64,000 bases of DNA from Armatimonadota bacterium (GCA_043814095.1 JBDRKI010000102.1:15716-79715), one strand, 5' to 3'. Shown: positions 2,398 to 64,000, counted from the stretch's first letter. Notes: generated from the letters alone by a model not told the origin. Numbers and translations are program-made.

Positions 2398-2419
2398 ACC
2401 TGAAATCTTGGAGGATATA

Positions 2420-5001: not shown

Positions 5002-7176
5002 TTATATCGGCGCTTTTGAGTCTTTTAAAATTTCGGGGAGTTTATCCGTTATTTTAAGAAAAGCATCAACAACCGCCGGGTCAAATTTAATTCCCTTAAG
5101 CTTTTTTATTTCTTCCACTGCTTCTTCGGTATCCATGGCTTTTCTGTAAGGCCTGTCGGTAGTTATGGCGTCATAGTAATCAGCCAGTCCGATAATTTTA
5201 GCCCCAAGGGGGATTTCCGCGCCTTTTAGGCGGGCCGGGTAGCCGGATCCGTCTATGTTTTCATGATGCGCCCTTACCAGAGGAGTGACATTGTCTAAAA
5301 AATGTATTTCTTTAAGTATTTCATAACCGCGCGCGGGATGGGACCGCATTATTTCCTGCTCATCTTCCGTTAACGCGCTCTTTTTCAGGAGAATTTCGTC
5401 TCTTATGCCGATTTTGCCTATATCGTGAAGATAACCGGCTATTTCTATCTTGGAAATTTCTTCACTGGGTAAACCCATCTCGCGGGCGATATATCCCGAT
5501 ATTTTTGACACTCTGTCCGAATGGTACTGGGTATAGGGATCTCTCGCGTCTACCGCTTTTACCAGGGATTTAAGAGTGTCTTTGTATGACTGCTTCAGAT
5601 CCTTATAAAGATCTCCTACTTTTTGCCCCTGCTGGGCGTGTTCCACTCCTATAACAGCCAGAAGCTGAAGGGTTGAGAAAAGCGTAAGATCTACGTCTGA
5701 GCTAATAATTAATTCAGATGCTTTCTGAAACTGTGATATGGCATTATTAAAGTCGCCGCTTCTTGAACTTGCGGCGCCCAGAGCAAAATAAGCGTGAGCG
5801 CTGGAAGGGTTTAATTCCAGTATTTTTTCATAAGATTTTATTGCTTTGTCAAAATCCTGCAGTTTAAAATAAACGGCGCCTAAATAATAGTAAGCGTACA
5901 TATCTATGGGATTTATCTGTATTGTTTTTTGGAGTTCTTCTATAGCCTGAGTAAGCTTGTTTAATTTAAAATATGTCACACCGAGAAGGTTTCTGGCAAA
6001 AGCATCCTTGGGATTAATATTCAAGGTCTTTTTAAATGACTCGGCCGCTTCAGGAAGCTTATTTAAGCGCAGGTAAACCTGGCCCAGACTGTAATGCGCG
6101 TAGCCGTGAGAGGGCACAAGACTTATCACCGTTTTATATTCCTTTACGGCTTCATCTAATTTTCCGAGCTGAGTGTAAACTTCAGCCGTATAATAACGGA
6201 CATCATCATCTTCAGGGTAAAGTTCAGTAACTTTCTGGAAGTATTTTAACGCAAGTTCGGCTTTACCGAGATTTTTATAAAGGAGCGCAAGGTTGAAATT
6301 CGCTTCTCTGTAATCGGGTTTTATCCGCAAAGCCAGATGGTATTCTTCAATTGCCTCATCCATTTTAAATTGTTTTTCAAATATTTTTGCCAGCTCAAAA
6401 TGAGGTTCGGCAAAATCGGGATCCGTATCGGCAGATTTTTTAATGAAAGAAACAGCGTCATTAAAGTTATTCTGCATTGAATAAATAAGCCCCAGGTAGT
6501 AATTGGCAAGTATGTGATTAGGTTTGGTTCTTAATATGTGTTCAAGGTTCTTTAAGCTTTCGGCTATTTTTCCTTCTTTATAAAGGGACGCGCATAATGC
6601 GGAGATGACGGGGATGCTGTTCGGTTTTTGTTTTAACTCTTCTTTGAAGTGATCTGAAGCCTGCTTTTTGTCGCCGAGCAATGAGTAAATAAAGCCCAGG
6701 TAATAATTTGCCATTTCAAAATTAGGTGATTTCGCGATAAGCTCCCGGAAAGCGTCTTGGGCTTTCTTGTAATCTTTTAAGAAAATAAAAGCCTTGCCCG
6801 CGTTGGAACACGTAAAGGGGTGAGTATTCTGGGTATTAAGGTATTTTTCCCATAAATCTATGCATTTTTTTATAATATCCTGTTTATTATAATAATTAAT
6901 CTTATCTATCCGCAAATTACCGTCAGAATCTATGATTTTTTCCCATGAAGATATAGCTTCGCTGAAACGCCCTTTCAGAGTGTAAATAAGGCCCAGATTA
7001 AACAGAGCTTGATGCAAAAATATGTTGTATTGCAAGGCTTTTTCGTATTCGGTAAGAGCGTCATCTATATCGCCGTTTTCATCTAAAAGCAGGGCCAGTT
7101 CATAGTAAGCTTGCGCGCTATCCGGATTTTGTTCTGATTTTTGTCTTGCTTTTTTTATGAGTATGTCATTTTTCAT
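5002..7176 (-). CDS. TPR-repeat protein fused to a C-terminal HD-GYP phosphodiesterase domain (c-di-GMP signalling)
   Basis: About 13 TPR-like repeats in the N-terminal ~500 aa. The C-terminal part carries HD..HDIGK..HHE..GSGYP motifs. Confidence 0.8.
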   Translation of the reverse strand: MKNDILIKKARQKSEQNPDSAQAYYELALLLDENGDIDDALTEYEKALQYNIFLHQALFNLGLIYTLKGRFSEAISSWEKIIDSDGNLRIDKINYYNKQDIIKKCIDLWEKYLNTQNTHPFTCSNAGKAFIFLKDYKKAQDAFRELIAKSPNFEMANYYLGFIYSLLGDKKQASDHFKEELKQKPNSIPVISALCASLYKEGKIAESLKNLEHILRTKPNHILANYYLGLIYSMQNNFNDAVSFIKKSADTDPDFAEPHFELAKIFEKQFKMDEAIEEYHLALRIKPDYREANFNLALLYKNLGKAELALKYFQKVTELYPEDDDVRYYTAEVYTQLGKLDEAVKEYKTVISLVPSHGYAHYSLGQVYLRLNKLPEAAESFKKTLNINPKDAFARNLLGVTYFKLNKLTQAIEELQKTIQINPIDMYAYYYLGAVYFKLQDFDKAIKSYEKILELNPSSAHAYFALGAASSRSGDFNNAISQFQKASELIISSDVDLTLFSTLQLLAVIGVEHAQQGQKVGDLYKDLKQSYKDTLKSLVKAVDARDPYTQYHSDRVSKISGYIAREMGLPSEEISKIEIAGYLHDIGKIGIRDEILLKKSALTEDEQEIMRSHPARGYEILKEIHFLDNVTPLVRAHHENIDGSGYPARLKGAEIPLGAKIIGLADYYDAITTDRPYRKAMDTEEAVEEIKKLKGIKFDPAVVDAFLKITDKLPEILKDSKAPI

Positions 7177-28979: not shown

Positions 28980-29062
28980 TTTTTTACGGAAATATATATG
29001 AATAAAAAAGTCCAAATAGCAATCCTACTATTAATAACTTAAAAGGAAATATAATAATATTA

Positions 29063-29094
29063 AAGAATAACCCAGTAAAGGTTATTCTTTTTAT
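29063..29094 (+). terminator. Terminator hairpin (AGAATAACC-CAGTAAA-GGTTATTCT) plus TTTT after the nucleotidyltransferase gene
   Basis: 9-bp perfect stem followed by a T-run. Confidence 0.5.
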
Positions 29095-29536: not shown

Positions 29537-30841
29537 GTGAACTGTGAAGTCACTGTAGATAAGATATCATACGGCGGGGAAGGTATAGCAAGAACAAACA
29601 ATATGGTTGTCTTTATACCGGGTGCTGTTCCCGGTGACAAGCTGGAAATTAAGCTTACCGAGCATAAAAAAAACTACGCAAGAGCTGAAATAGTAAAAAT
29701 TGTAGAGCCCTCCTCCCGCAGGATTAAACCCAAATGCAAATATTTTAATGTTTGCGGGGGATGCAGTTTCCAGAATATTGATTATAAAGAGCAGCTGAAC
29801 ATAAAAAAACAGATAGTTGAGGACTCTTTTTTCAGGTTCGGCAAGGGTCTCTGTGTAAAAGTAAAGGATCTTATCTGTTCGGAAAAAAAGTTCGGCTTCA
29901 GGAGCAAAATCCAGTGGGTGGCTAAAGATAATACTCTGGGTTTATATAAAAAAGGCACTCATAATGTAATTGATATAGATTACTGTTTTCTTGCAGATAA
30001 AAAAGTTAATGATTTAACTTCGTTAATAAAAAGAAAGCTTGCCGGAGCTGATTATAAGGTATTAAAGCATATTATAATCAGGGAATCATTATATAAAGAT
30101 GAATTTCTCGCGGTTTTTGTATTAAATAGCGGAAAAATTGAAGGTTTTAAAAAGATCACAGAAGAGCTTATGAGTGAGTTTCCGGGTTTGGCAGGTGTTT
30201 CGGCTAATATAAATGAAAAAATATCAAATGTGATTTTAGGAGATAAGAATATCCTGCTTGAAGGAGAAGGTTATTTAGAGGAAAAGGTTGATAATCTTTT
30301 CTTTTATTACAGCGGGACGCTGTTTTTCCAGGTTAATACAGGTCAGCTGGAGAAAATAATAAAGATTATAAGGGAAAATGTATTATTAACAGGGAATGAA
30401 GTTGTTTTAGATTTATACAGCGGGGTAGGGGCACTCTCCCTTCATATGGCAGGGGAATGCAGAAAGGTAATTTTGTCTGAAGAGTCCCCCGGAGCCGAGG
30501 AATTTTTCACAAAATCGGCTAATAGGAATAATATAACCAATGTTGAATTTATAACCGGTAAAGTTGAGGATTTTTTAGATAAGTTTCATAAAGAAGGCGG
30601 TTCTGCGGACTTAGTGATACTTGATCCGCCCCGTAAGGGTTGTTCTGACGAAGTTATAAGATGCCTGGGATTAATAAAAGCGCCTAAAATAGTATATTTA
30701 TCGTGCAATCCCGTCACACTGGCAAGGGACTGCAAAAAACTTGCGGGTTATGGCTATAAAGTTAATTTAATACAGCCGGTTGATATGTTCCCGCAGACAT
30801 ATCATGTTGAAGTGCTGGCTGTCCTGGAGAATAAGGAGTAG
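29537..30841 (+). CDS. TRAM-domain RNA (uracil-5-)-methyltransferase of the RlmD/RumA family
   Basis: N-terminal TRAM, a Cys cluster (CKYFNVCGGCSFQ) and a C-terminal SAM-MTase with DPPRKG motif. GTG start. Confidence 0.75.
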   Translation: MNCEVTVDKISYGGEGIARTNNMVVFIPGAVPGDKLEIKLTEHKKNYARAEIVKIVEPSSRRIKPKCKYFNVCGGCSFQNIDYKEQLNIKKQIVEDSFFRFGKGLCVKVKDLICSEKKFGFRSKIQWVAKDNTLGLYKKGTHNVIDIDYCFLADKKVNDLTSLIKRKLAGADYKVLKHIIIRESLYKDEFLAVFVLNSGKIEGFKKITEELMSEFPGLAGVSANINEKISNVILGDKNILLEGEGYLEEKVDNLFFYYSGTLFFQVNTGQLEKIIKIIRENVLLTGNEVVLDLYSGVGALSLHMAGECRKVILSEESPGAEEFFTKSANRNNITNVEFITGKVEDFLDKFHKEGGSADLVILDPPRKGCSDEVIRCLGLIKAPKIVYLSCNPVTLARDCKKLAGYGYKVNLIQPVDMFPQTYHVEVLAVLENKE

Positions 30842-30844
30842 GTT

Positions 30845-33079
30845 ATGGGACTTTTCCCGAGCGAAGGATTTGAAAAACTAAAACAAAAAGCGCTGGATAT
30901 ATTAAGGGCAAATAATATATGTTATCTTGGCGTTGAATATATATTTCTGGCATTTCTCTTAATCAATGAGAACCTTTTCAAAAAAGCCGGTGTGGATATA
31001 GAGAAAGTAGTTAAAGATATACTTGAACTGTCAATAAGAGGAGAGACAGCCCCTGAGTCGGTAGGAGTTACTCCCAGATACAAAATTATATTCAAAGAAG
31101 CGCAAAAGCTGGCTGAAGAAGAAAAATCCGACAGGGTCGAAGTCCCCCATTTTATAAAAGCAATGTTTGAAGACGAAAACAGCCTGCCTTCTGTTGTGCT
31201 TAAATGGAATAATATAGATAAAACGATTGTTACGGCCAATCTTGATAAGGCAAAAGACGTATCCGAAGCTTCCCCTGATAAACAGGAATCGAAAACTTCT
31301 AAAAAAGAAGATAAAAAATCATTTATTGAGAAATTCGGCAAAGACCTTGTTGTTGAAGCTAAAGCAGGCATGATAGATCCGGTAATAGGCAGGGAGAAAG
31401 AGATAGACAGAATAAAACAGATTCTTTTAAGAAAAACCAAAAGCAATCCTGTCTTAATAGGAGAGGCGGGAGTGGGCAAAACCGCTGTTGTTATGGGGAT
31501 TGCAAAAGCAGTGGCGGAAGGAAGGGTGCCGGATCAGCTTAAGGATAAGCGTATAATTGAACTTAACATAGCTTCCGTTCTTGCGGGGGCAAAATACCAG
31601 GGTGAGTTTGAAGAACGCCTGGAGAAAATAATAAAAGAAGTGGAAAAGAGCAAAGATATAATATTATTTATTGATGAGATCCATAATATAACGGGGGCAG
31701 GCAGGTCAGGTTCCGGTCTTGATGCCGGAAATATTTTAAAACCGGCGCTGGCTAAAGGCTCTTTCCCTGTTATAGGGGCTACCACGGTAGATGAACACAG
31801 AAAACACATTGAATCAGATCCTGCTCTGGAGAGAAGATTCCAGCCGGTCATAATTAACGAACCTTCTATTGAAGAAGCAATTGATATATTAAAGGGGTTA
31901 AAAGAAAGCTTCCAGGTTCATCACGGGGTTGAGTTTGAAGAAGAAGCTTTAATTGAAGCTGTTAAGCTTTCAAACAGGTATCTTACAAACAGAAACCTGC
32001 CTGATAAAGCCATAGATCTTATTGATGAGGCGGCGGCCAAGGTTAAAATAGAAGAGGTGGATTCTAAGGTTATCACCAAGGATATGATAGCTCAGGTTTT
32101 ATCTTCATGGACAGGGATACCTGTGGGAAAGATGACTTCACAGACTTCACAGGATCTTTTGAAGTTGGCGGATAATCTGCGTGAGGAAGTTATAGGTCAG
32201 GATAAAGCGGTTGATGCTGTATCCCAGACAGTGCAGATGGGCTACTCAGGTCTTGCTAATTACAAAAAACCTCTGGGAGTATTTTTATTCTTAGGTCCTA
32301 CGGGTGTGGGTAAGACATATCTTGCCAAGCGCCTGGCAGCCAAATTGTTCAGTTCCGAAAAAGATTTAATACGTCTAGATATGTCCGAATTTATGGAGAA
32401 GCATTCGGTGGCAAAACTTATAGGGGCGCCTCCCGGTTATGTAGGTTACGGGGAGGAAGGCATACTTACAAAATCCGTCAGGACAAAACCGTATTCCGTG
32501 GTGCTGTTAGACGAGATTGAGAAAGCCCATCCTGAGGTTTTTGATATATTCCTCCAGGTATTTGATGAGGGCAGGTTGACTGATTCCCGCGGCAGGACTA
32601 TTAATTTCTGCAATACTATTATAGTTATGACTTCAAATATAGGTTCTACGAGCATAGACAAAGACGGCAATGTGATATTGGTTGATATGGAAGATAAAAC
32701 TTCTCAGGAAGATATAATGAAGCTTGTAAGGAAAACATTCAGGGCGGAATTTTTAAACAGGATAGACGAAGTGGTTTTCTTTAAATCCTTAACTGAAGCC
32801 GAACTGAAAAAAATAGTTAAGTTGAGTTTCAGCGAAGCGGAGAAAAGACTTAAAGAGAAGAATATAAACTGGATTATATCTGATGAAGTTGTAGATCTGG
32901 TATGCAATCAGGGGTATAACCCCGCTTACGGGGCAAGGCCGTTAGAACGGGCCATAGGCACCCTTATACTGAAACCGCTTTCTTCGGAACTTTTAAAAGA
33001 GAATTTCAAGGAAGGCGATATTGTCCAGATTAAACTTAATCCGTCCACAAACAAGATAGAGTTTTTAAGGGAGAAATAA
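30845..33079 (+). CDS. Clp/Hsp100 AAA+ ATPase (ClpA/ClpC-like, two NBDs, no M-domain, no obvious ClpP-binding tripeptide)
   Basis: Two Walker A boxes ([16 protein letters not shown]). Only a short linker between NBD1 and NBD2. The region after TSNIGS reads DGNVILVD and lacks an [ILV]G[FL] loop. Confidence 0.8.
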   Translation: MGLFPSEGFEKLKQKALDILRANNICYLGVEYIFLAFLLINENLFKKAGVDIEKVVKDILELSIRGETAPESVGVTPRYKIIFKEAQKLAEEEKSDRVEVPHFIKAMFEDENSLPSVVLKWNNIDKTIVTANLDKAKDVSEASPDKQESKTSKKEDKKSFIEKFGKDLVVEAKAGMIDPVIGREKEIDRIKQILLRKTKSNPVLIGEAGVGKTAVVMGIAKAVAEGRVPDQLKDKRIIELNIASVLAGAKYQGEFEERLEKIIKEVEKSKDIILFIDEIHNITGAGRSGSGLDAGNILKPALAKGSFPVIGATTVDEHRKHIESDPALERRFQPVIINEPSIEEAIDILKGLKESFQVHHGVEFEEEALIEAVKLSNRYLTNRNLPDKAIDLIDEAAAKVKIEEVDSKVITKDMIAQVLSSWTGIPVGKMTSQTSQDLLKLADNLREEVIGQDKAVDAVSQTVQMGYSGLANYKKPLGVFLFLGPTGVGKTYLAKRLAAKLFSSEKDLIRLDMSEFMEKHSVAKLIGAPPGYVGYGEEGILTKSVRTKPYSVVLLDEIEKAHPEVFDIFLQVFDEGRLTDSRGRTINFCNTIIVMTSNIGSTSIDKDGNVILVDMEDKTSQEDIMKLVRKTFRAEFLNRIDEVVFFKSLTEAELKKIVKLSFSEAEKRLKEKNINWIISDEVVDLVCNQGYNPAYGARPLERAIGTLILKPLSSELLKENFKEGDIVQIKLNPSTNKIEFLREK

Positions 33080-33081
33080 TT

Positions 33082-33369
33082 ATGATAAAACTGGAGATAA
33101 TCGGCGGCCCTTATGACGGTAAGGAATATAAATTCAATAAATCAATAAAGATAGGCAGGGATAAATCTGCCGACATATCCATATATTTTGACAACTTTGC
33201 GTCCCGGATACACACTGGCTTGGAAATTGAAGGTAAAAAGTGTATATTAAAAGATATGAACAGCACTAACGGCACATATATTGGCAATAATAAAATAAAT
33301 GAGGTAGAATTAAAGGATAAAGATATATTTAAAGTCGGAAGAACGTTATTTAAAGTGGAGATATATTAA
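33082..33369 (+). CDS. FHA-domain protein (95 aa)
   Basis: GR..D....SR.H....SxNGT pattern (GRDKSADISIY..SRIHTG..STNGTYIGN). Translationally coupled to both flanking genes. Confidence 0.75.
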   Translation: MIKLEIIGGPYDGKEYKFNKSIKIGRDKSADISIYFDNFASRIHTGLEIEGKKCILKDMNSTNGTYIGNNKINEVELKDKDIFKVGRTLFKVEIY

Positions 33370-35529
33370 ATGATAGGACAGATTATAGGCAATTATAAAA
33401 TAGAGGAAAGAATAAAAAGCCAGGAACAGTATGCCATTTACAGGGCTAAGGATACCATATTTAATGTTCCCGTTTATTTAAAGATTTTATCTCACAAGAT
33501 AGTAGACAATCAGGATGTAAAAAAGAATTACTTATCCTGTGCTTCCCAGTATCTTAAGCTGAAGCATCCCAATATCTTAAATCTTTTAAAAACAGGCGAT
33601 GAAGGGGGATATACCTACCTTGCTTATGAGAATTTTTCAATTAAGACTCTCTATGAGTATTTAGGTGAAAACCCGGCTCTTACCCTGCATGAAAAAATGG
33701 ATATATTTTTTCAGATCTGTAAAGGTCTGAGTTATGCCCATCAGGATTGTATTCTGCACGGTAATTTAACGGCAGGGAATGTATTTATAGATAATAATAA
33801 AAATATAAAAATTGTGGATTTCGGAATTTCGGCTATTGAAATGCTGCAGACAGAAATTCACCAGAACCAGATACTTGAAGGCTTTTATTATTTCCCGCCC
33901 GAGAAGATAAACAAAGAACCCTTAGACGAGAAATCCGATCTGTATTCCCTGGGCGTTCTCTTATTCTACATATTGAGCAGAAAATACCCCTTTGAAGCCG
34001 AAGGGCTTAACCAGCTGTTCGGCAGAAAGCTGGAAGGTCACGCGGCAAGCATATCTTCATATGTTAACGATATTCCCCAGAGTATATCCGATGCAATATC
34101 CAAGCTTATTAAAAATAATAAACAGGAACGTTATTTAAATATTAAGGAACTTCTAAATGATATTAATAACTCCGGCTTAGATATTCAATACAATATCCCT
34201 TTATCCCCGAAACAGTCAAACTGGTTTGTTAATAAGGCAGGGGAAGCTTACCTTGCCGGAGATATAAATGCTTCTATTGAGAACTGGACCAAAGCAATTG
34301 AATTTGACCCTTATAATCCCGGATTATATACAAACCTTTCTAAAATATACTTGGAACAGGGAGATTACGCAAAAGCGGCTGAAAATTACAAAAAAGCCCT
34401 TTCGGTGGAGCCTTTTAAAACCAGCTGGCGCGTGGAACTCGCCAACTTACTTAAAAAAAGCAGTCAGTTCGGTTCCGCTCTTTCTGAATACGAGATTATA
34501 AAGAAGCTGGATTCTAAATACCTGCCGTATTATTTTAATGCCGGGAACTGCCTGTATTTCCTTAAAAGATACGGCGAAGCCATTACAGTATGGCTTGAAG
34601 GATTAAAACGCGATCCCGATAAACTGAGACTTCTGTATAACCTTGGGGTTGCCGAATACGCGATAGGCAAGACGGAAAAAGCACTTGAGTACTGGAGCAA
34701 GGTTCTGGAGATAAATAAAAATTTTGTAAAGGCCTCCTATAACCTGAGTATTGTAGAATTAAACAATAATAATACAGATAAAGCGTTCCTGTTATGGGAA
34801 GAGCTTGATAAAATATCCAATATGCCCGAGATAAAATTAAACCTAGGTAACAGTTATTATAACAAAAAAGACCATGATAAAGCCATGGAATACTGGAGTC
34901 TAGCCCTGGAATTAAATAAGGACTGCTGGCAGGCATATTTTAACCTCGGGATTTATTATTTCGGTAAAGATATAAATAAATCCAGAGAAATGTTTGAAAA
35001 AGCATCTCAGGCAAAGCCGGATTTATGGCTTGCTTACTGGAATCTGGGCTATGTTGCACAGAAAGACGGAGACCATAAAGCTTCTTCTGAATATTTTGAC
35101 AAAGTTCTGCAGCTTAACCCCGGATACTGGCAGGCAAATTACTATCTGGGCGAAAAACTCATAAAAGAAAATAAAATGGATGAAGCCCAGAAATGTTTTA
35201 TGAAGATATTTGACACACAGACTGACTTTTCGGAAGATTTCTGTAAAAATATGGGAGCCATCTTCTATAAAAATAGTCAGATTGACAAAGCTGTTGACTG
35301 CTGGGCAAAAACAGTATCGCATCATAATTTCCAGTGGGATGAAAAAGATGACGGTAAGGATATCCCCGACAGGATATATAAAGCTGCAAAGATTATGGTG
35401 CAAAAAGAACTTAAAGAAAAAGGGGATGGGGCCTCATTCTTTGTTCATGACCAGAAAGTCCACTTTAATATAAAGCCGGAGCTTATCCCGGCCGACTGCG
35501 GGGATATTATTCCTGTAATTGACTATTAA
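33370..35529 (+). CDS. Ser/Thr-kinase-like protein with a degenerate catalytic core (predicted pseudokinase) fused to TPR repeats
   Basis: Kinase fold recognisable (DFG, PPE, DLYSLG) but the Gly-loop is replaced, HRDLKPxN is replaced by HGNLTAGN, and the alpha-C Glu is not evident. C-terminal ~400 aa are TPR-like. Confidence 0.7.
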   Translation: MIGQIIGNYKIEERIKSQEQYAIYRAKDTIFNVPVYLKILSHKIVDNQDVKKNYLSCASQYLKLKHPNILNLLKTGDEGGYTYLAYENFSIKTLYEYLGENPALTLHEKMDIFFQICKGLSYAHQDCILHGNLTAGNVFIDNNKNIKIVDFGISAIEMLQTEIHQNQILEGFYYFPPEKINKEPLDEKSDLYSLGVLLFYILSRKYPFEAEGLNQLFGRKLEGHAASISSYVNDIPQSISDAISKLIKNNKQERYLNIKELLNDINNSGLDIQYNIPLSPKQSNWFVNKAGEAYLAGDINASIENWTKAIEFDPYNPGLYTNLSKIYLEQGDYAKAAENYKKALSVEPFKTSWRVELANLLKKSSQFGSALSEYEIIKKLDSKYLPYYFNAGNCLYFLKRYGEAITVWLEGLKRDPDKLRLLYNLGVAEYAIGKTEKALEYWSKVLEINKNFVKASYNLSIVELNNNNTDKAFLLWEELDKISNMPEIKLNLGNSYYNKKDHDKAMEYWSLALELNKDCWQAYFNLGIYYFGKDINKSREMFEKASQAKPDLWLAYWNLGYVAQKDGDHKASSEYFDKVLQLNPGYWQANYYLGEKLIKENKMDEAQKCFMKIFDTQTDFSEDFCKNMGAIFYKNSQIDKAVDCWAKTVSHHNFQWDEKDDGKDIPDRIYKAAKIMVQKELKEKGDGASFFVHDQKVHFNIKPELIPADCGDIIPVIDY

Positions 35530-35652
35530 TCTGTAATTTTTCTTCTATTTACCGGGTTTTTACCAAAAATACTCCATTTGACCTATATTTTTATTTATAT
35601 ATCCATGTTAAAATAATTATAGGAAAGATATTAATATAATTTGGAGTTGCAT

Positions 35653-35937
35653 ATGGTATGGGAAGGATTAAACAGCGGATTTAATGTTCAGGAATATAAA
35701 CAAAGTCTCAGGGAATCTGTAAAGCTTAAAAATCTGAAAGTAGGTATAGATCTAAATCTGGCTTTAAAAGAAGAAGAACTGCAGAAGCTTAAAGAAGATG
35801 ATAATGTTAATGAGATTAAATTAAGAAATATGGAGAAAGATGTTAAAAAGCTAAAAAGAAAAGCCGGAATATTGAAAGAAAAATATGAAATAATCGCAGA
35901 AAAACTGCAGAATTACGAAAGCCAGTTCTTTACATAA
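35653..35937 (+). CDS. Hypothetical coiled-coil protein (~94 aa)
   Basis: K/E-rich ORF with GGAG 5 nt before the ATG at 35653. Confidence 0.4.
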   Translation: MVWEGLNSGFNVQEYKQSLRESVKLKNLKVGIDLNLALKEEELQKLKEDDNVNEIKLRNMEKDVKKLKRKAGILKEKYEIIAEKLQNYESQFFT

Positions 35938-53063: not shown

Positions 53064-55649
53064 TTATTTTTTAAATTTTTCTTTTAAATACTTCCTTGCT
53101 TCTTTTTTATCCTTTATTATACCATCTATCTGGGCATCTTCAAGTGCTGTTAAGGCTTTTCTGAAAAAAGGTCCGGGGGTATAGTTCCATTTTATCAGGT
53201 CATTTCCTGTTACAAAGAATTTTATATTCTTAAGATGTGACAGGAAATAAACAATCCTGTGCCTTACCGATATAAAGTTTGTCCTTGCTATTATGTATAT
53301 AAGAGCTTCTATCGCAAGCGGGGAGAGCAGCCGGTATATCTGGCTTTTGGTTATTGTTTTTGAAGAAAGCTTCCTTATTAATAAAGATGCCGTATCTTTA
53401 TCAAGCTTTCTTTTTCGGACTTCCTCTATAGAAAATTTAAATCTTTTCGCGACTTCATCTATCTTTTCCGAGGAAAGCTGGCTTACAAGAATCATAAAAT
53501 AAATGATCCATTTTTTAGCGTTTTCTTTTTTTAATATTTTCTTATATTTGATCATAAGGGCTGTAGCTTCCTGGAGTGTGGCTACTAATTTCTGGTTTAA
53601 AAATATATCTTTATGTATAACTTTTAAAATATTAAGTTTTGCCATCCGCTTTAATGCCGGCACGGGTTTTTCTTCGCTTAATATAAGGGTTATCTCATCC
53701 CTTATCCTCTCCCCTGTCAGCTGGTCAAAAATATTGCTCTTAAGAGCGTTTAAGAGCAGCTCTTCCGTATGGTGATCCATTTTAAAATGGTACCTCTGTT
53801 CAAACCGTACTGCCCTGAATATCCTGGTAGGATCTTCTATAAAGCTTAAATTATGCAGGACCCTTACGATACCGTCTTTTAAATCATTCTGTCCGCCGAA
53901 GAAGTCCAAAAGGCTCCCGAACCCTTTTTTATTGAGCTGGACCGCCAGGGCGTTTATCGTAAAATCTCTTCTGTATAAATCCTGTTTTATGGATGTGGCC
54001 CATACATGAGGCAGGGCGGCGGGACGGGTATAGTATTCAACCCTGGTAGATGCCACATCCACTTTGCAGTGTTTTGTGAATACTATTGCGGTTTTAAATT
54101 TTTCATGTGTTATGACTTTGGCTTTTAAAGCCTTGCCCAGCTCCCCTGCGAATAATACGCCGTCACCTTCCACAACTATATCTATATCAAGGTTCTCAAT
54201 GCCCAGCAAAAGGTCTCTTACAAATCCTCCGGCAAGAAATATGTTAATACCCAGCATATCGGCTATTTTAGAACAGGTTTTAAATAATTTCTGCATATTT
54301 AAAGGCAGCTGTTCTATATTTGTTTTTGTGTCATGCCAGTGCCTGCCGGCTTTAATATGCATGCCGTGCAGTGTTGTAAGAATATCAGTACGGGTTACAA
54401 TGCCTTTAATAATACCGTCTTCTATTATAGGCAGCCGCCCTATATTATGGTCTGTCATTATTCTCTGAAGTGTATTTAAGGATGTATACGGATTGGCGGT
54501 AACAACGTCTTTTAACATGAATTCTTCTATACTGGCGTTAGCCAGTCCGTGGTGTATGGCTTTATCTATGTCATGTCGGGTTATAATCCCCGCGACCCTT
54601 CTGTCTTTTAAAATAACCAGCCCGCTGTGCCCGAACCTTACAATAGCTTTCTGGGCATCGGCTATTGTCTTATCTTCTTCAAGATTTATGTATCTTACAG
54701 GGGAACTCATGATATCTTTAGCCATAATAGTCGGCTTTAATTCTTTTTCAAGTGTATCATAAAGCCTTTTTTCGGCTGTTTTCATCTGTTTATGCTTAAT
54801 TACAACGGAAGCCGCGTTAGGATGGCCTCCCCCGCCTAACGGCGCGAGGATCCTGCTTAAATCAATCTCGGGCTGTTTGCTTCTTCCTATTATTAATATT
54901 TTGTCTTTCATCTTTATAAGCGTAAATACGATATCCACGCCTTCTATGTCAACAAGCCTGTGAACCACCAGGGATATCTCATCTATAAATTCTTTTGCAT
55001 GAGCCCTGGCTATAAGTATTTTAAAGCCCCTTACATGTTTAACATGGGAATTTACTATAAGGCTGTTCAATAATTTTATCTGAGGATCGCTTAAGCTGTG
55101 ATGGATATATTCCGATATTACCTTTAGATTCGCTTTTTTGCTTAAAAGGTACGCGACTGTCTCAACGTCTTCTTTAGTTGTATGCGAGAAAGTTAGCGAG
55201 CCCGTTTCTTCATATATGCCCAGAGCGAATAAGGTCGCCTCTAAAGGAGTTATGGGTATTTTCTTCTCCCTTATTTTCCTTGCCAGCATTGTTACCGTAG
55301 CGCCTAATACTTCAATATAATTCTCATCACCCTGAATTGATTCGGGTGCGGGCGGATGGTGATCGTAAATATGTACTTCCACAAGCGGGCTTATGAAAAA
55401 TTCTTTAAAAGCCCCTACCCTATCGGGCAGGCTGGTATCAACGACGATTAATTTTGATATTTCAAGATTCTTAACTTTTCTGGGATACTCTATATTAAAA
55501 TAATCTTTATATAAATGAACAAACTCCCTTACATTCTGGCTTGGGGTGGACGTAAAAAAAAGCCGGGCCTGCGGGTAGAGTTTAGATGCCGCAACCATAG
55601 AGGCAAGAGAATCAAAATCAGCCGTAACGTGAGATATAATTACTTCCAT
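53064..55649 (-). CDS. Multidomain DHH/DHHA1 - CBS pair - polyA polymerase/CCA-adding nucleotidyltransferase fusion protein
   Basis: N-terminal DHH (HVTADFDSLAS), a middle CBS pair and a C-terminal Pol-beta NTase head (GGFVRDLLLG..DIDIVV) with a tRNA-NT-like body. Confidence 0.75.
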   Translation of the reverse strand: MEVIISHVTADFDSLASMVAASKLYPQARLFFTSTPSQNVREFVHLYKDYFNIEYPRKVKNLEISKLIVVDTSLPDRVGAFKEFFISPLVEVHIYDHHPPAPESIQGDENYIEVLGATVTMLARKIREKKIPITPLEATLFALGIYEETGSLTFSHTTKEDVETVAYLLSKKANLKVISEYIHHSLSDPQIKLLNSLIVNSHVKHVRGFKILIARAHAKEFIDEISLVVHRLVDIEGVDIVFTLIKMKDKILIIGRSKQPEIDLSRILAPLGGGGHPNAASVVIKHKQMKTAEKRLYDTLEKELKPTIMAKDIMSSPVRYINLEEDKTIADAQKAIVRFGHSGLVILKDRRVAGIITRHDIDKAIHHGLANASIEEFMLKDVVTANPYTSLNTLQRIMTDHNIGRLPIIEDGIIKGIVTRTDILTTLHGMHIKAGRHWHDTKTNIEQLPLNMQKLFKTCSKIADMLGINIFLAGGFVRDLLLGIENLDIDIVVEGDGVLFAGELGKALKAKVITHEKFKTAIVFTKHCKVDVASTRVEYYTRPAALPHVWATSIKQDLYRRDFTINALAVQLNKKGFGSLLDFFGGQNDLKDGIVRVLHNLSFIEDPTRIFRAVRFEQRYHFKMDHHTEELLLNALKSNIFDQLTGERIRDEITLILSEEKPVPALKRMAKLNILKVIHKDIFLNQKLVATLQEATALMIKYKKILKKENAKKWIIYFMILVSQLSSEKIDEVAKRFKFSIEEVRKRKLDKDTASLLIRKLSSKTITKSQIYRLLSPLAIEALIYIIARTNFISVRHRIVYFLSHLKNIKFFVTGNDLIKWNYTPGPFFRKALTALEDAQIDGIIKDKKEARKYLKEKFKK

Positions 55650-57345: not shown

Positions 57346-58944
57346 ATGAAAAATAAACATAAAATTTATCTGTTAATATTAATATTTTTATCAGTACTGC
57401 TGCTTTTCTTCCGTCTAGGAGATTACAGTTTATGGGATACCGACGAACCCCTGTACTCCCAGATGGCAAGGGAATTCAATTACCATAATGACCTTCTTAC
57501 CCTTTACTGGAACGGCGAGCCCTGGTTCTGTCATCCCCCGTTATACATGTGGCTTACAATGGTAAGCGGGAATCTGTTCGGCTGGAATGAATTTGCCGTG
57601 AGGTTTCCTTCCGCTTTATTCGGCGTTCTTATAATTATTCTCACTTATTTTATGGGTAAAAGATTTTACAATGAAGATGTGGGATTCCTGTCGGGTTTGA
57701 TTTTAATGACATCTCTTCAGGTATTTGTTCAAGGCAGGTTATCCAATTTAGATACTCTCTTTACGTTTTTCCTTATGCTCTCAACTTATGCCTGTTATGC
57801 GGGGGTTACGGATAACTCCCGTAGGTATATACTGTTTTTCTGGCTTTCATGCGCTTTGGGAACTCTGGCTAAGGGGCCTTTCGCTCTATGCCTCCCCTTG
57901 GGCCTTATATTCCTATGGCTTTTCTCTACAAAGAAACTGAAGGAATTTAAAAAGGTATTTATATATGAAGGCATCATAGCTTATGTTATTTTAGGCGGCT
58001 TCTGGTATATAGCGGGGCTTATTAAATACAAAACAGAATTTTACAATTTAGTATTTAAATATTTTATATTCCAGAGGGTTACAACAGCGGTAATGGACCA
58101 GAGCGGCCCTGTTTATTTTTACATACTCATATTTATAGCGGGATTCTTACCCTGGGTTTTCCTTTTCGTGCCTGCCGTTATTGATTACTTTAAGAACAGG
58201 AAAAATGAAATTTCTGTTTTCTTGCTTATATGGGCGGTTATACCGTTTTTATTCTTCTCGCTTGTCCAGACAAAACTGCCCAATTACATATTATTCATAT
58301 ACCCCGCATGCGCTATTATGCTTGCTAACTATTTTTACAACTACATTTACATTAAAGACTTAAAAACTTCGCTTTTGATATCTTTAATAGTTTACACTTT
58401 ATTTTACACGGCGGTTATTACTTCTTTCGTGCTTCTTGCAAGCGGGAAATATCCCAATGAATATATGGCGGCGCGCGGGCACCTGCTTCCCCTTTTATAC
58501 ATAATAATAGGCACTGCTTTATTCAGCTGGTTTTTCTTTGCATTCAATAAGAGGAAATACGTGCTCCCCGCGATCATAGCGGGAACTTTTATACTTTACC
58601 TTTCGATTGTCAACATGGCCGTGTATATTGACCAGTTTAAACCCGTAAAGCCCATAGCATTGAAGATAAAAAGCTTAAAGTCGCCTTCCGAAAAAATGAT
58701 AGTATTCACAGAGAAGTTTAATAACAGCGCAAGCTTTGTATTTTACATGAACGAAAAGATTACATTCATGGAAAAGATTGATGAACTTAAGGAATTTTTA
58801 AATAATAATCCCGGAGCTTATATCCTTATAAAAAGAGGCATTAATAACGGTGGTGACAGATATTACCAGCTTAAAACGGAAATGCCGGGAATAAAAACAG
58901 TATTCGTTAATGACGGTTATGTGGTCTGCAGGGCTACAGATTAG
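57346..58944 (+). CDS. GT39/ArnT-family membrane glycosyltransferase (dolichyl-phosphate-mannose protein mannosyltransferase-like)
   Basis: Polytopic membrane protein with an N-terminal DxD-like motif (WDTDEP) and an ArnT/PMT-like loop. 532 aa. Confidence 0.7.
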   Translation: MKNKHKIYLLILIFLSVLLLFFRLGDYSLWDTDEPLYSQMAREFNYHNDLLTLYWNGEPWFCHPPLYMWLTMVSGNLFGWNEFAVRFPSALFGVLIIILTYFMGKRFYNEDVGFLSGLILMTSLQVFVQGRLSNLDTLFTFFLMLSTYACYAGVTDNSRRYILFFWLSCALGTLAKGPFALCLPLGLIFLWLFSTKKLKEFKKVFIYEGIIAYVILGGFWYIAGLIKYKTEFYNLVFKYFIFQRVTTAVMDQSGPVYFYILIFIAGFLPWVFLFVPAVIDYFKNRKNEISVFLLIWAVIPFLFFSLVQTKLPNYILFIYPACAIMLANYFYNYIYIKDLKTSLLISLIVYTLFYTAVITSFVLLASGKYPNEYMAARGHLLPLLYIIIGTALFSWFFFAFNKRKYVLPAIIAGTFILYLSIVNMAVYIDQFKPVKPIALKIKSLKSPSEKMIVFTEKFNNSASFVFYMNEKITFMEKIDELKEFLNNNPGAYILIKRGINNGGDRYYQLKTEMPGIKTVFVNDGYVVCRATD

Positions 58945-59884
58945 CCCTTTTAGCTATTTGTTCGTCTATATATATTATTATTTCGGAAGGTCCCCAGCTT
59001 GTAACAAGCAGGTTTATCCTGTCACCGCTTGAATGAGTGCTTTCATATATGGTCTGAGGTCCCGTAAGATCGTTTAATACGGCCTTTACATTCATTTTTT
59101 TGCTGGATGCGGGGACTACAAAGATTATATTGTCCTGTTTTAATTTTAAATCAATATATCTTGTACCCGCGCTTATTTTAAAAGATACGTTCGTGCCCGG
59201 ATAAACGAGCTCATCTTCATTAATGCTCTGCCATAGAATCTGGCCTAAGTCTTCTTCGTCGCTGTATTCCCATTTAATACTGCCTGTTTTAAGTTTTAAA
59301 TCCTCCATTTTGCTTCTTGCGTCTTTTATATTCATACCCGCAAATTTAGGTACTCTCACGGAAGGCTGTCCGCCCGAGTTAACGGTTACGTCAACTTTAG
59401 TGCCTTTTTTTACTCTTGAACCTGGGAGAGGGTTCTGGTTGAATATCTGCTCCTGTTCAACCGTATTATCCTGGCCCTTTTCCACTTTGCCTGCATCAAG
59501 CATATAGTTTGAAAGCATTATTTTGCCTTCCCTTAAAGTAAGGCCTATTAATTTCGGAACTTCGCATAAATCGGGGCCGCTGCTTACTACAACAAGTATA
59601 TCGCGCCCTTTTTTTACTTTTACGCCGGCAAGAGGCTCCTGTGATATCACGGTGTTTTCTGGCAGTTTGTTATCATATCTTGAATCAACAACCATAATAC
59701 TCAAATGTTTTGATTTTAAGGTTTTTTCCGCGTCATCTACCGAAATACTTGTAACATTAGGCACTTCAATTTCGCCTGTGGTGCCCCAGAAAGTGTAGAA
59801 CATATTAAACAGAAACCATACAAAGAAAATGACCGATATTATGATAAATCCGTACAGTAATCCTTTTTTAACAGATTCTCCCAT
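58934..59884 (-). CDS. Membrane-anchored protein with three PASTA domains
   Basis: N-terminal TM helix followed by three ~65-aa PASTA-like repeats (VP..G....A...L...GL). Directly downstream of the kinase gene. Confidence 0.65.
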   Translation of the reverse strand: MGESVKKGLLYGFIIISVIFFVWFLFNMFYTFWGTTGEIEVPNVTSISVDDAEKTLKSKHLSIMVVDSRYDNKLPENTVISQEPLAGVKVKKGRDILVVVSSGPDLCEVPKLIGLTLREGKIMLSNYMLDAGKVEKGQDNTVEQEQIFNQNPLPGSRVKKGTKVDVTVNSGGQPSVRVPKFAGMNIKDARSKMEDLKLKTGSIKWEYSDEEDLGQILWQSINEDELVYPGTNVSFKISAGTRYIDLKLKQDNIIFVVPASSKKMNVKAVLNDLTGPQTIYESTHSSGDRINLLVTSWGPSEIIIYIDEQIAKRANL

Positions 59885-59896
59885 AGCATTTCTCCT

Positions 59897-61900
59897 TTAC
59901 TTAACCACTATTAAATCAATCTTCTGGCCGGCAGGCACTTCCATTCCTGATTTCGGGTCCTGTTCAATAACAGTTCCCGATTTAGCTATTGAAGATTTTA
60001 AATATTCCACTTTGCCGAGAGCAAAACCGGCATTTTTTATAAGCGATTCGGCTTCGTCTTTTGACTTACCGATAAGATCAGGCACTACTATTGTCGAAGC
60101 AAGTTTTACTTTTACAATATTGCCCTTCATAAGGGCGCCGACTTCGGGGTCCTGCATTATAATCTGAGAGTTATCGTTAATTTTATCCCCGTTTTCAATA
60201 ATTATAAGGTCTAAACCCAGTTCATTAACTTCCTGTTTTGCTTCATTTAAGCCGAGCCCTATTAAATTAGGGGCGGTTAAATTCTCAAATCCCGAGCTTA
60301 AATACAGTTTTATCTTTTTATCTTCGGGAATGGCCCGTTTAGGCTTAGGATCCTGGTCTATCACATTGCCTTTGGGTATTTTAGCAGAAGGCTTCTCCCC
60401 TGCTATTTCATAATCCAGGTTAAAATCTTTTAATATTTTTTCCGCTTCTTCCAGCGTAAGATCGGTTAAATTGGGAACGGCTTTAGCGAAAGCACCCTGG
60501 CTTACCTCAAAATATACCGTGTCTTTCTGCGCTATTTCCTCGCCGGGTGCCGGTCTCTGAGCAATAATTATGCCTTCGGGAACGTCCTTATTTATGACTT
60601 CTTTTATGACCCTGAATTTTAAATCCATGCCGTTTAGAATGGTTTCAGCGTCTTTTATGTTTTTGCCTATAAAATTAGGAACCTTTAAACCCGCGATACC
60701 CTTGCTTAAAATAACAAGTACGGGAGTGTTTATATTAAGCTTTCTGCCCCATTCTGGGTACTGTTTTATAATTCTTCCCGTCTCTACTGTGTCGCTGAAC
60801 TCTTCACCCTGCACTTTAATTTTAAGTCCCGCATTCTCGGTCGCCGTTAAAGCTTCGGCGTAGTTCATATTTACAAGGTTGGGCACGTCAACTTTTTCCG
60901 TTAAACTGTTTATAACAAAATACGCGCCTGCCAGTAAAAGGATAAGCACTATGAATAATCCTATATAATTTCTTTTTTTAGACGGTTTCTTATCATGCCT
61001 TTCACTTCTTTTTTCAAATTTTACTTCTTCGTCTTTAAGCTTTAAAGCCGGCTTTATAATGGTATTTTCAAGCTTTACGGTTAAAAGTTTCTCCAGCGCC
61101 CTGTTAAAGTCTGTATAAAATTCATCTATATTTTTATATCTGTCCAGCGGGTTTTTGCTTAAAGCTTTTAATATGCAGTCATCTATCTCCGTGCTTAGTT
61201 TAGGATTTATTTCAGACGGTTTTGGGGGTGTTTCTTTTACATGCTTTAAAGCCACCGTAACGGCGTTATCGCCTTCAAAGGGGAGCTTCCCGGTAAGGAG
61301 CTGGTATGCAAGAACACCCAGTGAATACACGTCCGAGGCAGGTGTTATCTCCTTGCCCTGCGCCTGTTCGGGCGAGAAATAAAAAACAGAGCCCAGCATT
61401 GTACCCTGGGTGACCGTTTCGGTCTGGGTTATCCTTGCTATGCCGAAATCCGTAACCTTTATATTCCCTTCATCGTCTATTAAAACGTTTGAAGGCTTTA
61501 TATCCCTGTGTATAATGCCTTTAGTGTGTGCGTAAGCTATCGCGGAAGACACGTCTTTTATTATCTTAAGGGTTTCATTAAATTCTAAAACTTTTTTTGT
61601 CTCAAGGTAGTCTTTAAGATTCTCAGCGTTTATATATTCAAGAGCAAGAAAAATTAAGCCGTTATCTTCGGCAATATCATAAACATTTATTATATTGGGA
61701 TGGGATAAAGCCGCGTAAGCCCGGGCTTCGTTTTTAAATCTTAATATGAAATTTTTATCTTTTGAATACTCCGTCCGGAGTATTTTTAAAGCCACCCAGC
61801 GTCCTAGTTTTGTATCCTTGGCTTTATAGACAACAGCCATCCCGCCGTCGCCTATTTTTTTAACTATCTCGTAACGGTTCTGAATAGTTTTTCCCAGCAT
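59897..61900 (-). CDS. Eukaryotic-like Ser/Thr protein kinase with extracellular PASTA repeats (PknB/PrkC-type)
   Basis: Intact kinase motifs (GDGGMAVVYKA, VALK, HRDIKPSN, DFGIA, SPEQ), a TM helix and 4-5 C-terminal PASTA repeats. Confidence 0.88.
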   Translation of the reverse strand: MLGKTIQNRYEIVKKIGDGGMAVVYKAKDTKLGRWVALKILRTEYSKDKNFILRFKNEARAYAALSHPNIINVYDIAEDNGLIFLALEYINAENLKDYLETKKVLEFNETLKIIKDVSSAIAYAHTKGIIHRDIKPSNVLIDDEGNIKVTDFGIARITQTETVTQGTMLGSVFYFSPEQAQGKEITPASDVYSLGVLAYQLLTGKLPFEGDNAVTVALKHVKETPPKPSEINPKLSTEIDDCILKALSKNPLDRYKNIDEFYTDFNRALEKLLTVKLENTIIKPALKLKDEEVKFEKRSERHDKKPSKKRNYIGLFIVLILLLAGAYFVINSLTEKVDVPNLVNMNYAEALTATENAGLKIKVQGEEFSDTVETGRIIKQYPEWGRKLNINTPVLVILSKGIAGLKVPNFIGKNIKDAETILNGMDLKFRVIKEVINKDVPEGIIIAQRPAPGEEIAQKDTVYFEVSQGAFAKAVPNLTDLTLEEAEKILKDFNLDYEIAGEKPSAKIPKGNVIDQDPKPKRAIPEDKKIKLYLSSGFENLTAPNLIGLGLNEAKQEVNELGLDLIIIENGDKINDNSQIIMQDPEVGALMKGNIVKVKLASTIVVPDLIGKSKDEAESLIKNAGFALGKVEYLKSSIAKSGTVIEQDPKSGMEVPAGQKIDLIVVK

Positions 61901-61910
61901 ATTAAACCTC

Positions 61911-63314: not shown

Positions 63315-63339
63315 TCTTTACTCTTTCCCTGATTCGGTT

Positions 63340-64000
63340 TTATTTGGCCTTTTCTTTTTCTTCATGAGTATTTCTGGCTATTACCGTCAGTAAACCCAGA
63401 ATAATAAAATTTGAAACTATGGATGATCCGCCGTAGCTTACAAAGGGGAGTGTTATTCCTGTCAGAGGTATAATCTTTAAATTGCCGGCGATAATAACTA
63501 TGGACTGCCATGCGATTATCGCTGTTAATCCTGCGGAAAGCAGTTTCCCGAAGCTTTCTTTAACATTGATACTTACTTTAAAAGCTTTCCCTATGAACAA
63601 AAGATAAAGGATTATAAGGGCAGTGGCGCCTAAAAATCCCATCTCTTCAGATATGGCGCTGAATATAAAGTCGGTCTGCACGGCGGGCACGTAATACGGT
63701 TTGCCCATGCCCAGTCCCGTGCCGAATAATCCCCCTGCGGTTATTGAAAAAAGCCCTTGTATAATCTGGTGCCCCATGCCGTAAGGATCGCTCCAGGGAT
63801 TTAACCAGCTTATAAACCTTACCTTTATGTGGGCAAACGCCCTGTAGCACAGGTAAGATCCGCCGGCAAAAAGCATTATGCTTGTTACCATGATATCTTT
63901 CCTGGACGTGCTTAAATAAAACATAGTGATAAAGATACTGAACAGCAGAAGCGCCATACCCATATCTTTTTGCAGGACTATTATGAACATGCATAAAAGC
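63340..64000 (-). CDS. SEDS-family protein FtsW/RodA, 3' portion (N-terminus lies beyond the window end)
   Basis: C-terminal SEDS conservation (PAVQTDFIFSAISEE..GITLPFVSYGGSS). The ORF runs off the window edge. Confidence 0.8.
   Translation of the reverse strand, partial: LLCMFIIVLQKDMGMALLLFSIFITMFYLSTSRKDIMVTSIMLFAGGSYLCYRAFAHIKVRFISWLNPWSDPYGMGHQIIQGLFSITAGGLFGTGLGMGKPYYVPAVQTDFIFSAISEEMGFLGATALIILYLLFIGKAFKVSINVKESFGKLLSAGLTAIIAWQSIVIIAGNLKIIPLTGITLPFVSYGGSSIVSNFIILGLLTVIARNTHEEKEKAK

Follow-up and report, generated by a model that had tools for sequence, protein, structure and literature searches.

In a 64,000-nucleotide stretch of DNA from an Armatimonadota bacterium (GCA_043814095.1, JBDRKI010000102.1:15716-79715; hereafter the window), the gene at 33370..35529 on the plus strand encodes a 719-residue protein in which a kinase-like domain is fused to tetratricopeptide repeats (TPR). 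The domain has the predicted fold of a Hanks-type Ser/Thr kinase and a degenerate active site, and the alignments place the loss of its catalytic residues as an old event, fixed at the base of the clade to which the window protein belongs. The gene lies directly behind those of a Clp-type ATPase and of a stand-alone FHA protein, and in a sister clade the same three-gene module carries a live kinase. We propose that the window protein is probably a long-established pseudokinase, and that it would work without catalysis, as scaffold or adaptor of a phosphothreonine (pThr)/FHA/Clp module, with pThr supplied in trans.

Degenerate active site of the kinase-like domain

The gene is a single uninterrupted open reading frame (ORF) with Pfam matches to Pkinase and TPR families, and the database record of the exact protein reads 'MAG: tetratricopeptide repeat protein [Armatimonadota bacterium]', MAG denoting a metagenome-assembled genome. 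The kinase-like domain comprises residues 1-268 (33370..34173, +). Pfam Pkinase (PF00069) covers residues 31-263 with 113.9 bits at a cut-off of 31.7, and the closest solved relative in a phmmer search of the PDB is S. aureus PknB/Stk1 (4eqm; 28% identity, E 3e-36). The AlphaFold2 (AF2) model of the domain has a pLDDT of ~90, and Foldseek matches it best to S. aureus PknB (9ymt/4eqm; TM score 0.88-0.89) and then to M. tuberculosis PknB (TM score 0.8-0.89 overall). By profile score and modelled fold the window protein is a member of the Hanks-type kinase superfamily; the kinase-family match and the existence of orthologues place the observation far beyond chance.

The repeat part forms a predicted solenoid of 22 helices, about 11 repeats, at residues 286-650 (34225..35319, +). 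Residues ~290-650 match many Pfam TPR families (TPR_1, TPR_2, TPR_8, TPR_11 and others; TPR_2 3e-42, TPR_1 2e-36), AF2 models the helices as 11 TPR-like pairs spanning residues 280-649, mostly at pLDDT 85-94, and the top Foldseek matches are the TPR superhelices of OGT/SPY. An earlier note on this DNA, made from the sequence alone, had put the repeats at about 400 residues. TPR are present as it stated, but the C-terminal 450 residues divide into ~365 residues of TPR and a 63-residue tail that is not TPR (residues 657-719, ending ...IDY; 35338..35529, +); AF2 confidence is low over the final ~70 residues of the protein, that is, in the region of this tail. The Stk1/PknB PASTA kinase model (NCBIfam NF033483) scores 177.3 bits over residues 7-268 only and does not reach its cut-off of 450, and neither PASTA repeats nor a transmembrane helix were detected in the protein by profile scans and hydropathy (Kyte-Doolittle maximum of 0.76 over 19 residues). 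Having no hydrophobic segment, the protein is taken to be cytosolic.

Motifs were read off an alignment with S. aureus PknB (4eqm) and the translation of the exact coordinates, all on the plus strand. The Gly-rich loop reads IKSQEQYAIY (33412..33441) in place of LGGGGMSTVY (consensus [LIV]GxGGxGxVY). The catalytic loop reads HGNLTAGN (33757..33780) in place of HRDIKPQN, by which Asp is replaced by Asn and Lys by Thr; the Mg-binding Asn (N137) is kept. These two degenerate motifs were the core of the earlier note, and both stand. The VAIK motif has become VYLK (33472-33483) with the β3 lysine K38 (33481..33483) retained. DFG (33817..33825), a PPE at the SPE/APE position (33895-33903) and the DLYSLG of subdomain IX (DxxSxG; 33937-33954) are all found where the note had listed them. 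The glutamate of the αC REV/REA motif is Cys57 (YLSCA, 33529-33543). Its loss, also supposed in the note, holds for the window protein but not for the whole family, as glutamate is present in two of the five orthologues.

Five pseudokinase lineages were compared, stemming from independent JGI, ENA and Logan metagenome assemblies: the window protein, P0003 (L001-L004), P0002 (L005), P0121 (L009) and a 717-residue protein of L010. Their ORFs are intact without exception (715-719 residues). The lineages are ~52-61% identical, with 51-64% for the kinase domain and 50-73% for the TPR part taken separately. Whether orthologues share the degenerate residues had been suggested as a check, and the result is uniform. 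All five lineages lack the glycines of the Gly-loop and share the replacement consensus x-S-[KQ]-E-[LQ]-[YF]; all carry Asn for the HRD Asp and Thr for the catalytic-loop Lys (H-x-N-[LI]-T). K38 is invariant in these lineages and in all active relatives. DFG is kept in four of five (NFG in L005), as is the terminal Asn of the catalytic loop, and the αC Glu position reads Cys, Glu, Ala, Glu and Gln. Asn132, Thr134, Ser17, Glu19 and Tyr/Phe21 are each conserved five times out of five, and ~21-27% of alignment columns are invariant across the lineages.

Concerning selection, the ratio of nonsynonymous to synonymous differences (pN/pS) is 0.35-0.41 in the kinase domain, equal to that of the TPR region, and in the least saturated pair (L001-L009) the corresponding substitution ratio dN/dS is ~0.19 for the kinase domain and 0.05 for the TPR region. 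The protein is still under purifying selection. Pseudokinases have been defined by the absence of at least one of the β3 Lys, the HRD Asp and the DFG Asp (PMC12599244). With the HRD Asp lost in all five aligned lineages the family is a pseudokinase family in this sense, and the window protein is predicted to be catalytically inactive.

The contrast with an intact PknB-type kinase, likewise drawn in the earlier note, is clear. The PASTA Ser/Thr kinase at 59897..61900 (-), a protein of 667 residues with Pfam Pkinase and five PASTA matches, has all catalytic motifs (IGDGGMAVVY, VALK, NEA, HRDIKPSN, DFG). It is the only other kinase of the window, which in total holds two kinase domains and one FHA domain. 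Its gene stands in a cell-wall signalling cluster (58934-63990, -) together with FtsW/RodA, which is cut by the window end, a penicillin-binding protein transpeptidase and a 316-residue PASTA-only protein.

The pseudokinase family is rare, with five lineages found in total. Searched with HMMER against 1.84 billion representatives, a profile of the pseudokinase domain gave one family representative (P0121) among the best 150 matches listed; the ranking is by summed score, which favours multi-kinase proteins, and single-domain relatives below ~213 bits lie outside these 150. A scan of GTDB species-representative genomes with the orthologue alignment gave no match, and a scan of metagenome contigs returned one locus known before and two unrelated kinases, with no new member. 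The top summed-score matches to the profile were proteins of 1,300-2,900 residues with 4-10 tandem kinase-like domains (P0122-P0133, P0170, P0172, P0230, P0235). Many of these tandem domains are degenerate themselves (HGN, HRN, HRS; DFG replaced).

The Clp-FHA module and its live kinase in a sister clade

Upstream of the pseudokinase gene lie the genes of a 744-residue Clp/Hsp100 double-ring ATPase (30845..33079, +; assigned from NCBIfam scores and PDB alignments) and of a 95-residue stand-alone FHA protein (33082..33369, +; Pfam FHA 3e-15). The Clp and FHA genes are 2 nt apart; between FHA and pseudokinase the gap is 0 nt, the stop codon abutting the ATG. Both junctions of L009 are 4-nt overlaps, and a 17-nt overlap is found in L013. 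The order Clp-FHA-pseudokinase recurs in all five pseudokinase lineages, and the order Clp-FHA-kinase in four loci of the active sister clade. The pThr-binding residues of the FHA protein (GR, SRxH, S[TR]NGT) are conserved in all 10 lineages aligned, from both clades, which points to a canonical pThr pocket retained in the FHA neighbour.

The Clp protein has both Walker modules, and its NCBIfam scores remain below the cut-offs of ClpB (845 bits, cut-off 1232), ClpA (718, cut-off 993) and ClpV (688, cut-off 885). The ClpB model matches it in two pieces with the M-domain missing, and PDB alignments skip the M-domain too. At the position where S. aureus ClpC has FAGFG, a deletion and the residues DGNVIL are found, and the ClpP-docking [IVLA]G[FL] loop is absent. 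M-domain and ClpP loop are likewise absent in all Clp orthologues aligned (L001, L009-L011, L013-L017). By these features the protein fits neither a ClpP-coupled unfoldase of the ClpA/ClpC type nor the disaggregase ClpB, and it appears to represent an undescribed subfamily of stand-alone unfoldases, mostly paired with a 96-residue FHA gene. Since a canonical ClpB is encoded in the window as well (2408-4996, +; 862 residues, 1393 bits at a cut-off of 1232), the 744-residue Clp would be an extra, specialised paralogue. The D1 pore-loop aromatic is His (AG.xHRG) and not the usual Tyr in most of these orthologues; the window protein keeps Tyr (AGAKYQG).

Directly upstream, 3 nt from the Clp gene, stands a TRAM/U5 RNA methyltransferase gene (29537..30841, +; Pfam). 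It occupies the same position in both clades, with an overlap into the Clp gene in L013/L014, and may share a transcript with the Clp-FHA-pseudokinase genes. The stretch from the LigA region to the methyltransferase gene contains a perfect inverted repeat of 11-12 bp with runs of T on either strand (29062-29090); it is plausibly a bidirectional terminator at the upstream boundary of the unit. Downstream of the pseudokinase gene there is a small coiled-coil ORF (35641-35937, +). A role as fourth component of the module is not supported, for it aligns poorly with the 71-72-residue ORFs found there in L001, L003 and L010, which makes its conservation doubtful.

The live form of the kinase was reached through the Clp protein. 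A search with it retrieved relatives at ~50% identity in a sister clade, where the gene order is methyltransferase-Clp-FHA-X, X being a 659-residue protein. BLASTP aligns this protein with the window protein colinearly over the full length (29-30% identity, ~660 residues, E 1e-103 and 4e-107). That X might be an unknown protein was ruled out by direct comparison, which shows a canonical kinase with LGRGGMGIVY, VAIK, RFIREA, HRDVKPAN, DFG and SPE. A search with X brought in further members. The motifs (GRGGxG, VAIK, REA, HRD[VI]KPxN, DFG) are complete in all 16 members of the active clade that were examined, examples being L013:8502-10481 (GCA_043798715.1), L011:6078-8057, L014:8520-10499 and P0391-P0403; no form intermediate between live and dead kinase was seen among these 16. 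The active orthologues were missed by HMMER and by word-based searches, the latter crowded by TPR proteins, and were found only by way of the Clp neighbour. Precomputed Pfam tables list '-' for the 659-residue proteins at L011, L013 and L014 despite their textbook kinase-TPR sequence. The earlier note had reasoned that orthologues retaining HRD and GxGxxG would suggest a sequencing error or a recent loss. Such orthologues do exist, confined to this distant sister clade at ~30% identity, and neither error nor recent loss is implied by them.

The architecture of kinase, linker (with an ISPK motif) and TPR is colinear in the window protein and the 659-residue orthologues. When kinase domain and TPR region were searched separately, for each of them the active clade came second in rank, right behind the pseudokinase clade. 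Among the sequences retrieved, the TPR region aligns colinearly from end to end with the active clade at 149-172 bits and reaches at most 100 bits with any other TPR kinase. Orthology therefore rests on more than synteny. The active proteins end in ...LFSW, which is aligned to NFQW (653-656) of the window protein. As they stop at this point, the 63-residue tail, confined to the five pseudokinase lineages, would have been added specifically in the pseudokinase clade.

Evolutionary rates were compared using the co-inherited Clp gene as a yardstick of divergence and one pair of loci per clade. In the pseudokinase pair (L001-L009) dN amounts to 0.113 for Clp, 0.258 for the kinase domain, 0.183 for the TPR region and 0.150 for FHA; the active pair (L013-L014) gives 0.103, 0.026, 0.025 and 0.117, respectively. 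At matched Clp divergence, nonsynonymous change in the kinase domain is ~10 times higher in the dead than in the live clade. Identities agree with this. Conservation of the kinase-TPR protein exceeds that of Clp in the active clade (0.63-0.80 versus 0.54-0.63) and falls short of it in the dead clade (0.50-0.73 versus 0.66-0.82). Both kinase domain and TPR region are accelerated whereas FHA is not, which fits a role change of the whole protein better than the decay of a single site.

In M. tuberculosis PknB, the N-lobes pair back to back through the residues R10, L33 and D76. In PknB numbering, which was checked against known residues, these positions read N/F/K(N) in all five pseudokinases; the active clade, like the PASTA kinase of the window, has R/L/D. 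The PknB mutant structures L33D and D76A are among the structures matched by Foldseek.

Elsewhere in the window, two further genes were recorded. The gene at 53064-55649 (-) encodes an 861-residue fusion protein resembling A-adding tRNA nucleotidyltransferase, with an NrnA/DHH-like N-terminal part (697 bits, where the family cut-off is 1440). The one at 5002-7176 (-) encodes a 724-residue protein with a long TPR array and a C-terminal region similar to response-regulator cyclic di-GMP phosphodiesterases of the NosR family.

Proposed function and alternative readings

The third protein of the sister-clade module is a fully equipped Ser/Thr kinase, from which we presume that the ancestral module formed a self-contained circuit of a Ser/Thr kinase, a pThr reader (FHA) and a Clp-type unfoldase. 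In the clade of the window protein, catalysis would have been lost once; afterwards the kinase-TPR protein would have evolved faster than its operon partners, lost its dimer contacts and gained the C-terminal tail. TPR solenoid and tail may hold partners or clients. The kinase-fold domain could present a docking surface for the FHA protein and possibly act as a nucleotide-binding switch, the latter being proposed because Lys38, Asn137 and the DFG Asp are kept. Since the pThr pocket of the FHA protein is still canonical, a different active kinase would now have to write pThr. The only candidate in the window is the PASTA kinase 24 kb away. A candidate site for trans-phosphorylation and FHA docking is Thr161 of the activation segment (TEI; 33850..33852, +), which is invariant in all five pseudokinases and falls, in the alignment, on the first Thr of T-x-T in the active clade. 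An equivalence of Thr161 with PknB T171 was considered and dropped: it depends on the alignment, a gap-free register putting T171 at Ile163, and Thr161 stays a candidate only. As output, the neighbouring Clp unfoldase would be recruited or regulated. Scaffold function, phosphorylation in trans and coupling to Clp are thus what we infer for the window protein.

A broader version of this proposal is possible, and we offer it tentatively. Clp (with neither M-domain nor ClpP loop), FHA and kinase-TPR protein might constitute an undescribed unfoldase system under pThr control, in which the kinase-TPR protein would be both writer and client adaptor. The window's clade would have dropped the writing and kept the protein as an adaptor or allosteric subunit, the mark coming from the PASTA kinase or being dispensed with. 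In the literature searched, no description of a Clp-FHA-kinase-TPR module was found.

Several observations weigh against a non-catalytic scaffold within this module. The retained VAIK Lys, DFG Asp and catalytic-loop Asn would be compatible with ATP binding or with weak or non-canonical activity, and dS is saturated for most pairs. The equivalent of T171, the main PknB phosphosite, is Ile, so that Thr161 differs from that site. A scan for promoters and terminators found promoter-like sites at chance frequency and thereby did not delimit the operon. L016 carries Clp and FHA without a kinase downstream, and L017 carries Clp without either. The wider gene order (UvrD-LigA-x-methyltransferase ... 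XerC) is also syntenic within and between the clades; the adjacency to Clp and FHA could thus partly mirror inherited gene order and not function. Carried to its end, this leads to a reading in which the pseudokinase is unrelated to its neighbours and acts elsewhere, for instance by pairing allosterically with the PASTA kinase, by serving as its decoy or by being a TPR scaffold of a general kind. Synteny extending past the three genes in both clades, the incomplete loci L016 and L017 and the intergenic gaps of 70 and 110 nt in L001 agree with it. We nevertheless regard it as unlikely. The triad stays adjacent across clades in which Clp is only ~50% identical and the downstream genes differ (XerC, metallophosphatase, a 322-residue protein followed by a NERD-domain protein in L013, CorA), and the junctions abut or overlap in several lineages. 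Moreover, an FHA domain is the natural partner of a Ser/Thr kinase, and the lost R10/D76 pair speaks against a canonical back-to-back dimer with a kinase of the PknB type.

Whether the window protein is still an enzyme has to be weighed as well. Some kinases first labelled dead have turned out to be active, and pseudokinase folds have been turned to other chemistry. HER3, which has HRN, binds ATP and is weakly active. An atypical kinase, or another ATP-using enzyme working without canonical Gly-loop and catalytic Asp, would account for the invariant VAIK Lys and for a DFG and an Mg-binding Asn each kept in four of five lineages; the conservation of the replacement residues Asn132, Thr134, Ser17, Glu19 and Tyr/Phe21 in every lineage speaks for constraint on the active site and not for free drift. 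A new catalytic activity is known on a bacterial pseudokinase fold (SidJ), and the family ActPs2 has the HRD Asp changed to Asn (PMC12599244). Such an enzyme is nonetheless improbable, given that the catalytic base, the Lys of the catalytic loop and every glycine of the Gly-loop were lost jointly, and with them the αC Glu in three of five lineages. The tenfold acceleration of the kinase domain relative to the active orthologues and the disappearance of the N-lobe dimer residues used in PknB-type activation point the same way. Least of all do we expect an artefact of sequencing or assembly, or an incipient pseudogene. The source is a metagenome-assembled genome, and beyond this and the unusual motifs nothing favours such an origin. 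The same substitutions recur in five lineages of independent assemblies, in uninterrupted ORFs with many invariant columns, dN/dS well below 1 and a confidently modelled kinase fold; we therefore give a sequencing error, a recent loss or a decaying pseudogene a probability close to nil and count them as excluded.

Bacterial pseudokinases have been catalogued, almost none of them with a known function, and for the Hanks kinases of bacteria it is difficult to tell roles that need no catalysis from those that do. That one three-gene module exists in two sister clades, its kinase live in the one and fixed as dead in the other, makes for a clean natural experiment, in which the dead form shows measurable consequences: a rate shift in both domains, lost dimer contacts and a gained tail. 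Setting the live form against the dead one would reveal the part that a kinase fold plays in a bacterial signalling module after catalysis is lost, and would assign a function to an orphan Clp paralogue that has neither of the known coupling devices, M-domain and ClpP loop. A practical limit is set by the rare family and its origin from uncultured Armatimonadota-like metagenome-assembled genomes. A bacterial Hanks-type pseudokinase with a scaffold domain is an already known type, and the function given to it here is a proposal; what is added to it are the conserved Clp-FHA context, the live sister-clade orthologues and the shift in evolution measured after catalysis was lost.

Relation to known kinase, FHA and ATPase systems

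With PknB/Stk1 of S. aureus (4eqm/9ymt) and M. tuberculosis (1mru) the window protein shares the bilobal fold, the VAIK Lys, DFG, the APE Glu and DxxSxG. In contrast to them it has no Gly-loop, catalytic Asp, catalytic-loop Lys, transmembrane helix or PASTA repeats; it carries a TPR solenoid instead, and R10/D76 are replaced. In a 2025 atlas of bacterial Ser/Thr kinases, 42 families are distinguished, seven of which are pseudokinases (ActPs1-3, GLW, CP1, DYD and DLHK); all seven include substitution of the VAIK Lys, in all or some of their members, and most are actinobacterial, proteobacterial or domain-fused (bioRxiv 10.1101/2025.01.12.632604; PMC12599244). CP1 is fused to a COG3899 ATPase, the ActPs families are actinobacterial with loss of DFG, and C-terminal TPR, the one accessory domain to recur in several of the kinase families, are reported solely for the canonical families PknG, Strep1, Strep2, GN-NS1 and Myxo1 (bioRxiv 10.1101/2025.01.12.632604; PMC12599244). 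The window protein keeps VAIK Lys and DFG, has HxN and not GLW or DLHK, carries TPR and not COG3899, and comes from Armatimonadota. Judged by these features and not by family profiles, it belongs to none of the seven published families.

Two kinds of system that could have housed the module were rejected. Anti-phage defence finds only generic kinase (PD-T4-6, mad6) and generic AAA matches in PADLOC, and the neighbourhood is housekeeping. A secretion system of type VI (T6SS) offers the closer likeness, since kinase, FHA protein and Clp-family ATPase are encoded together in both. In the PpkA-Fha pathway, which works with ClpV, a Hanks kinase is paired with an FHA reader, and reading of pThr switches the machine on (PMC3953482). 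The window kinase differs from PpkA in being soluble and, as predicted, dead. A T6SS reading was set aside, the Clp protein scoring 688 bits with ClpV (below 885) and the flanks being housekeeping genes (UvrD, LigA, RNA methyltransferase, XerC); no T6SS structural genes adjoin the module, the genes next to it being those inspected and the whole window not having been scanned for T6SS genes.

The system of M. tuberculosis MviN and FhaA is similar in that a Hanks-fold pseudokinase has an FHA partner, which in our case is proposed. The pseudokinase domain of MviN (MurJ), a member of ActPs3, recruits FhaA by means of pThr written in trans by PknB (PMC12599244). This domain lacks VAIK Lys, HRD and DFG, has a short activation loop and is fused to a membrane flippase (PMC12599244; bioRxiv 10.1101/2025.01.12.632604). 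Neither Clp nor TPR takes part in the MviN system, and the window protein, unlike MviN, keeps VAIK Lys and DFG. The type VIIb secretion system unites the same three elements as the window module, a pseudokinase fold, FHA and an ATPase. There the pseudokinase YukC/EssB is an interaction hub that binds the FHA domains of the ATPase YukB/EssC independently of phosphorylation (PMC9600267). These FHA domains have lost their pThr-binding residues and are fused to an FtsK-type ATPase within a membrane secretion machine (PMC9600267). In the window, by contrast, the FHA protein stands alone and has canonical pThr residues, and the part of the ATPase falls to a soluble Clp/Hsp100 protein.

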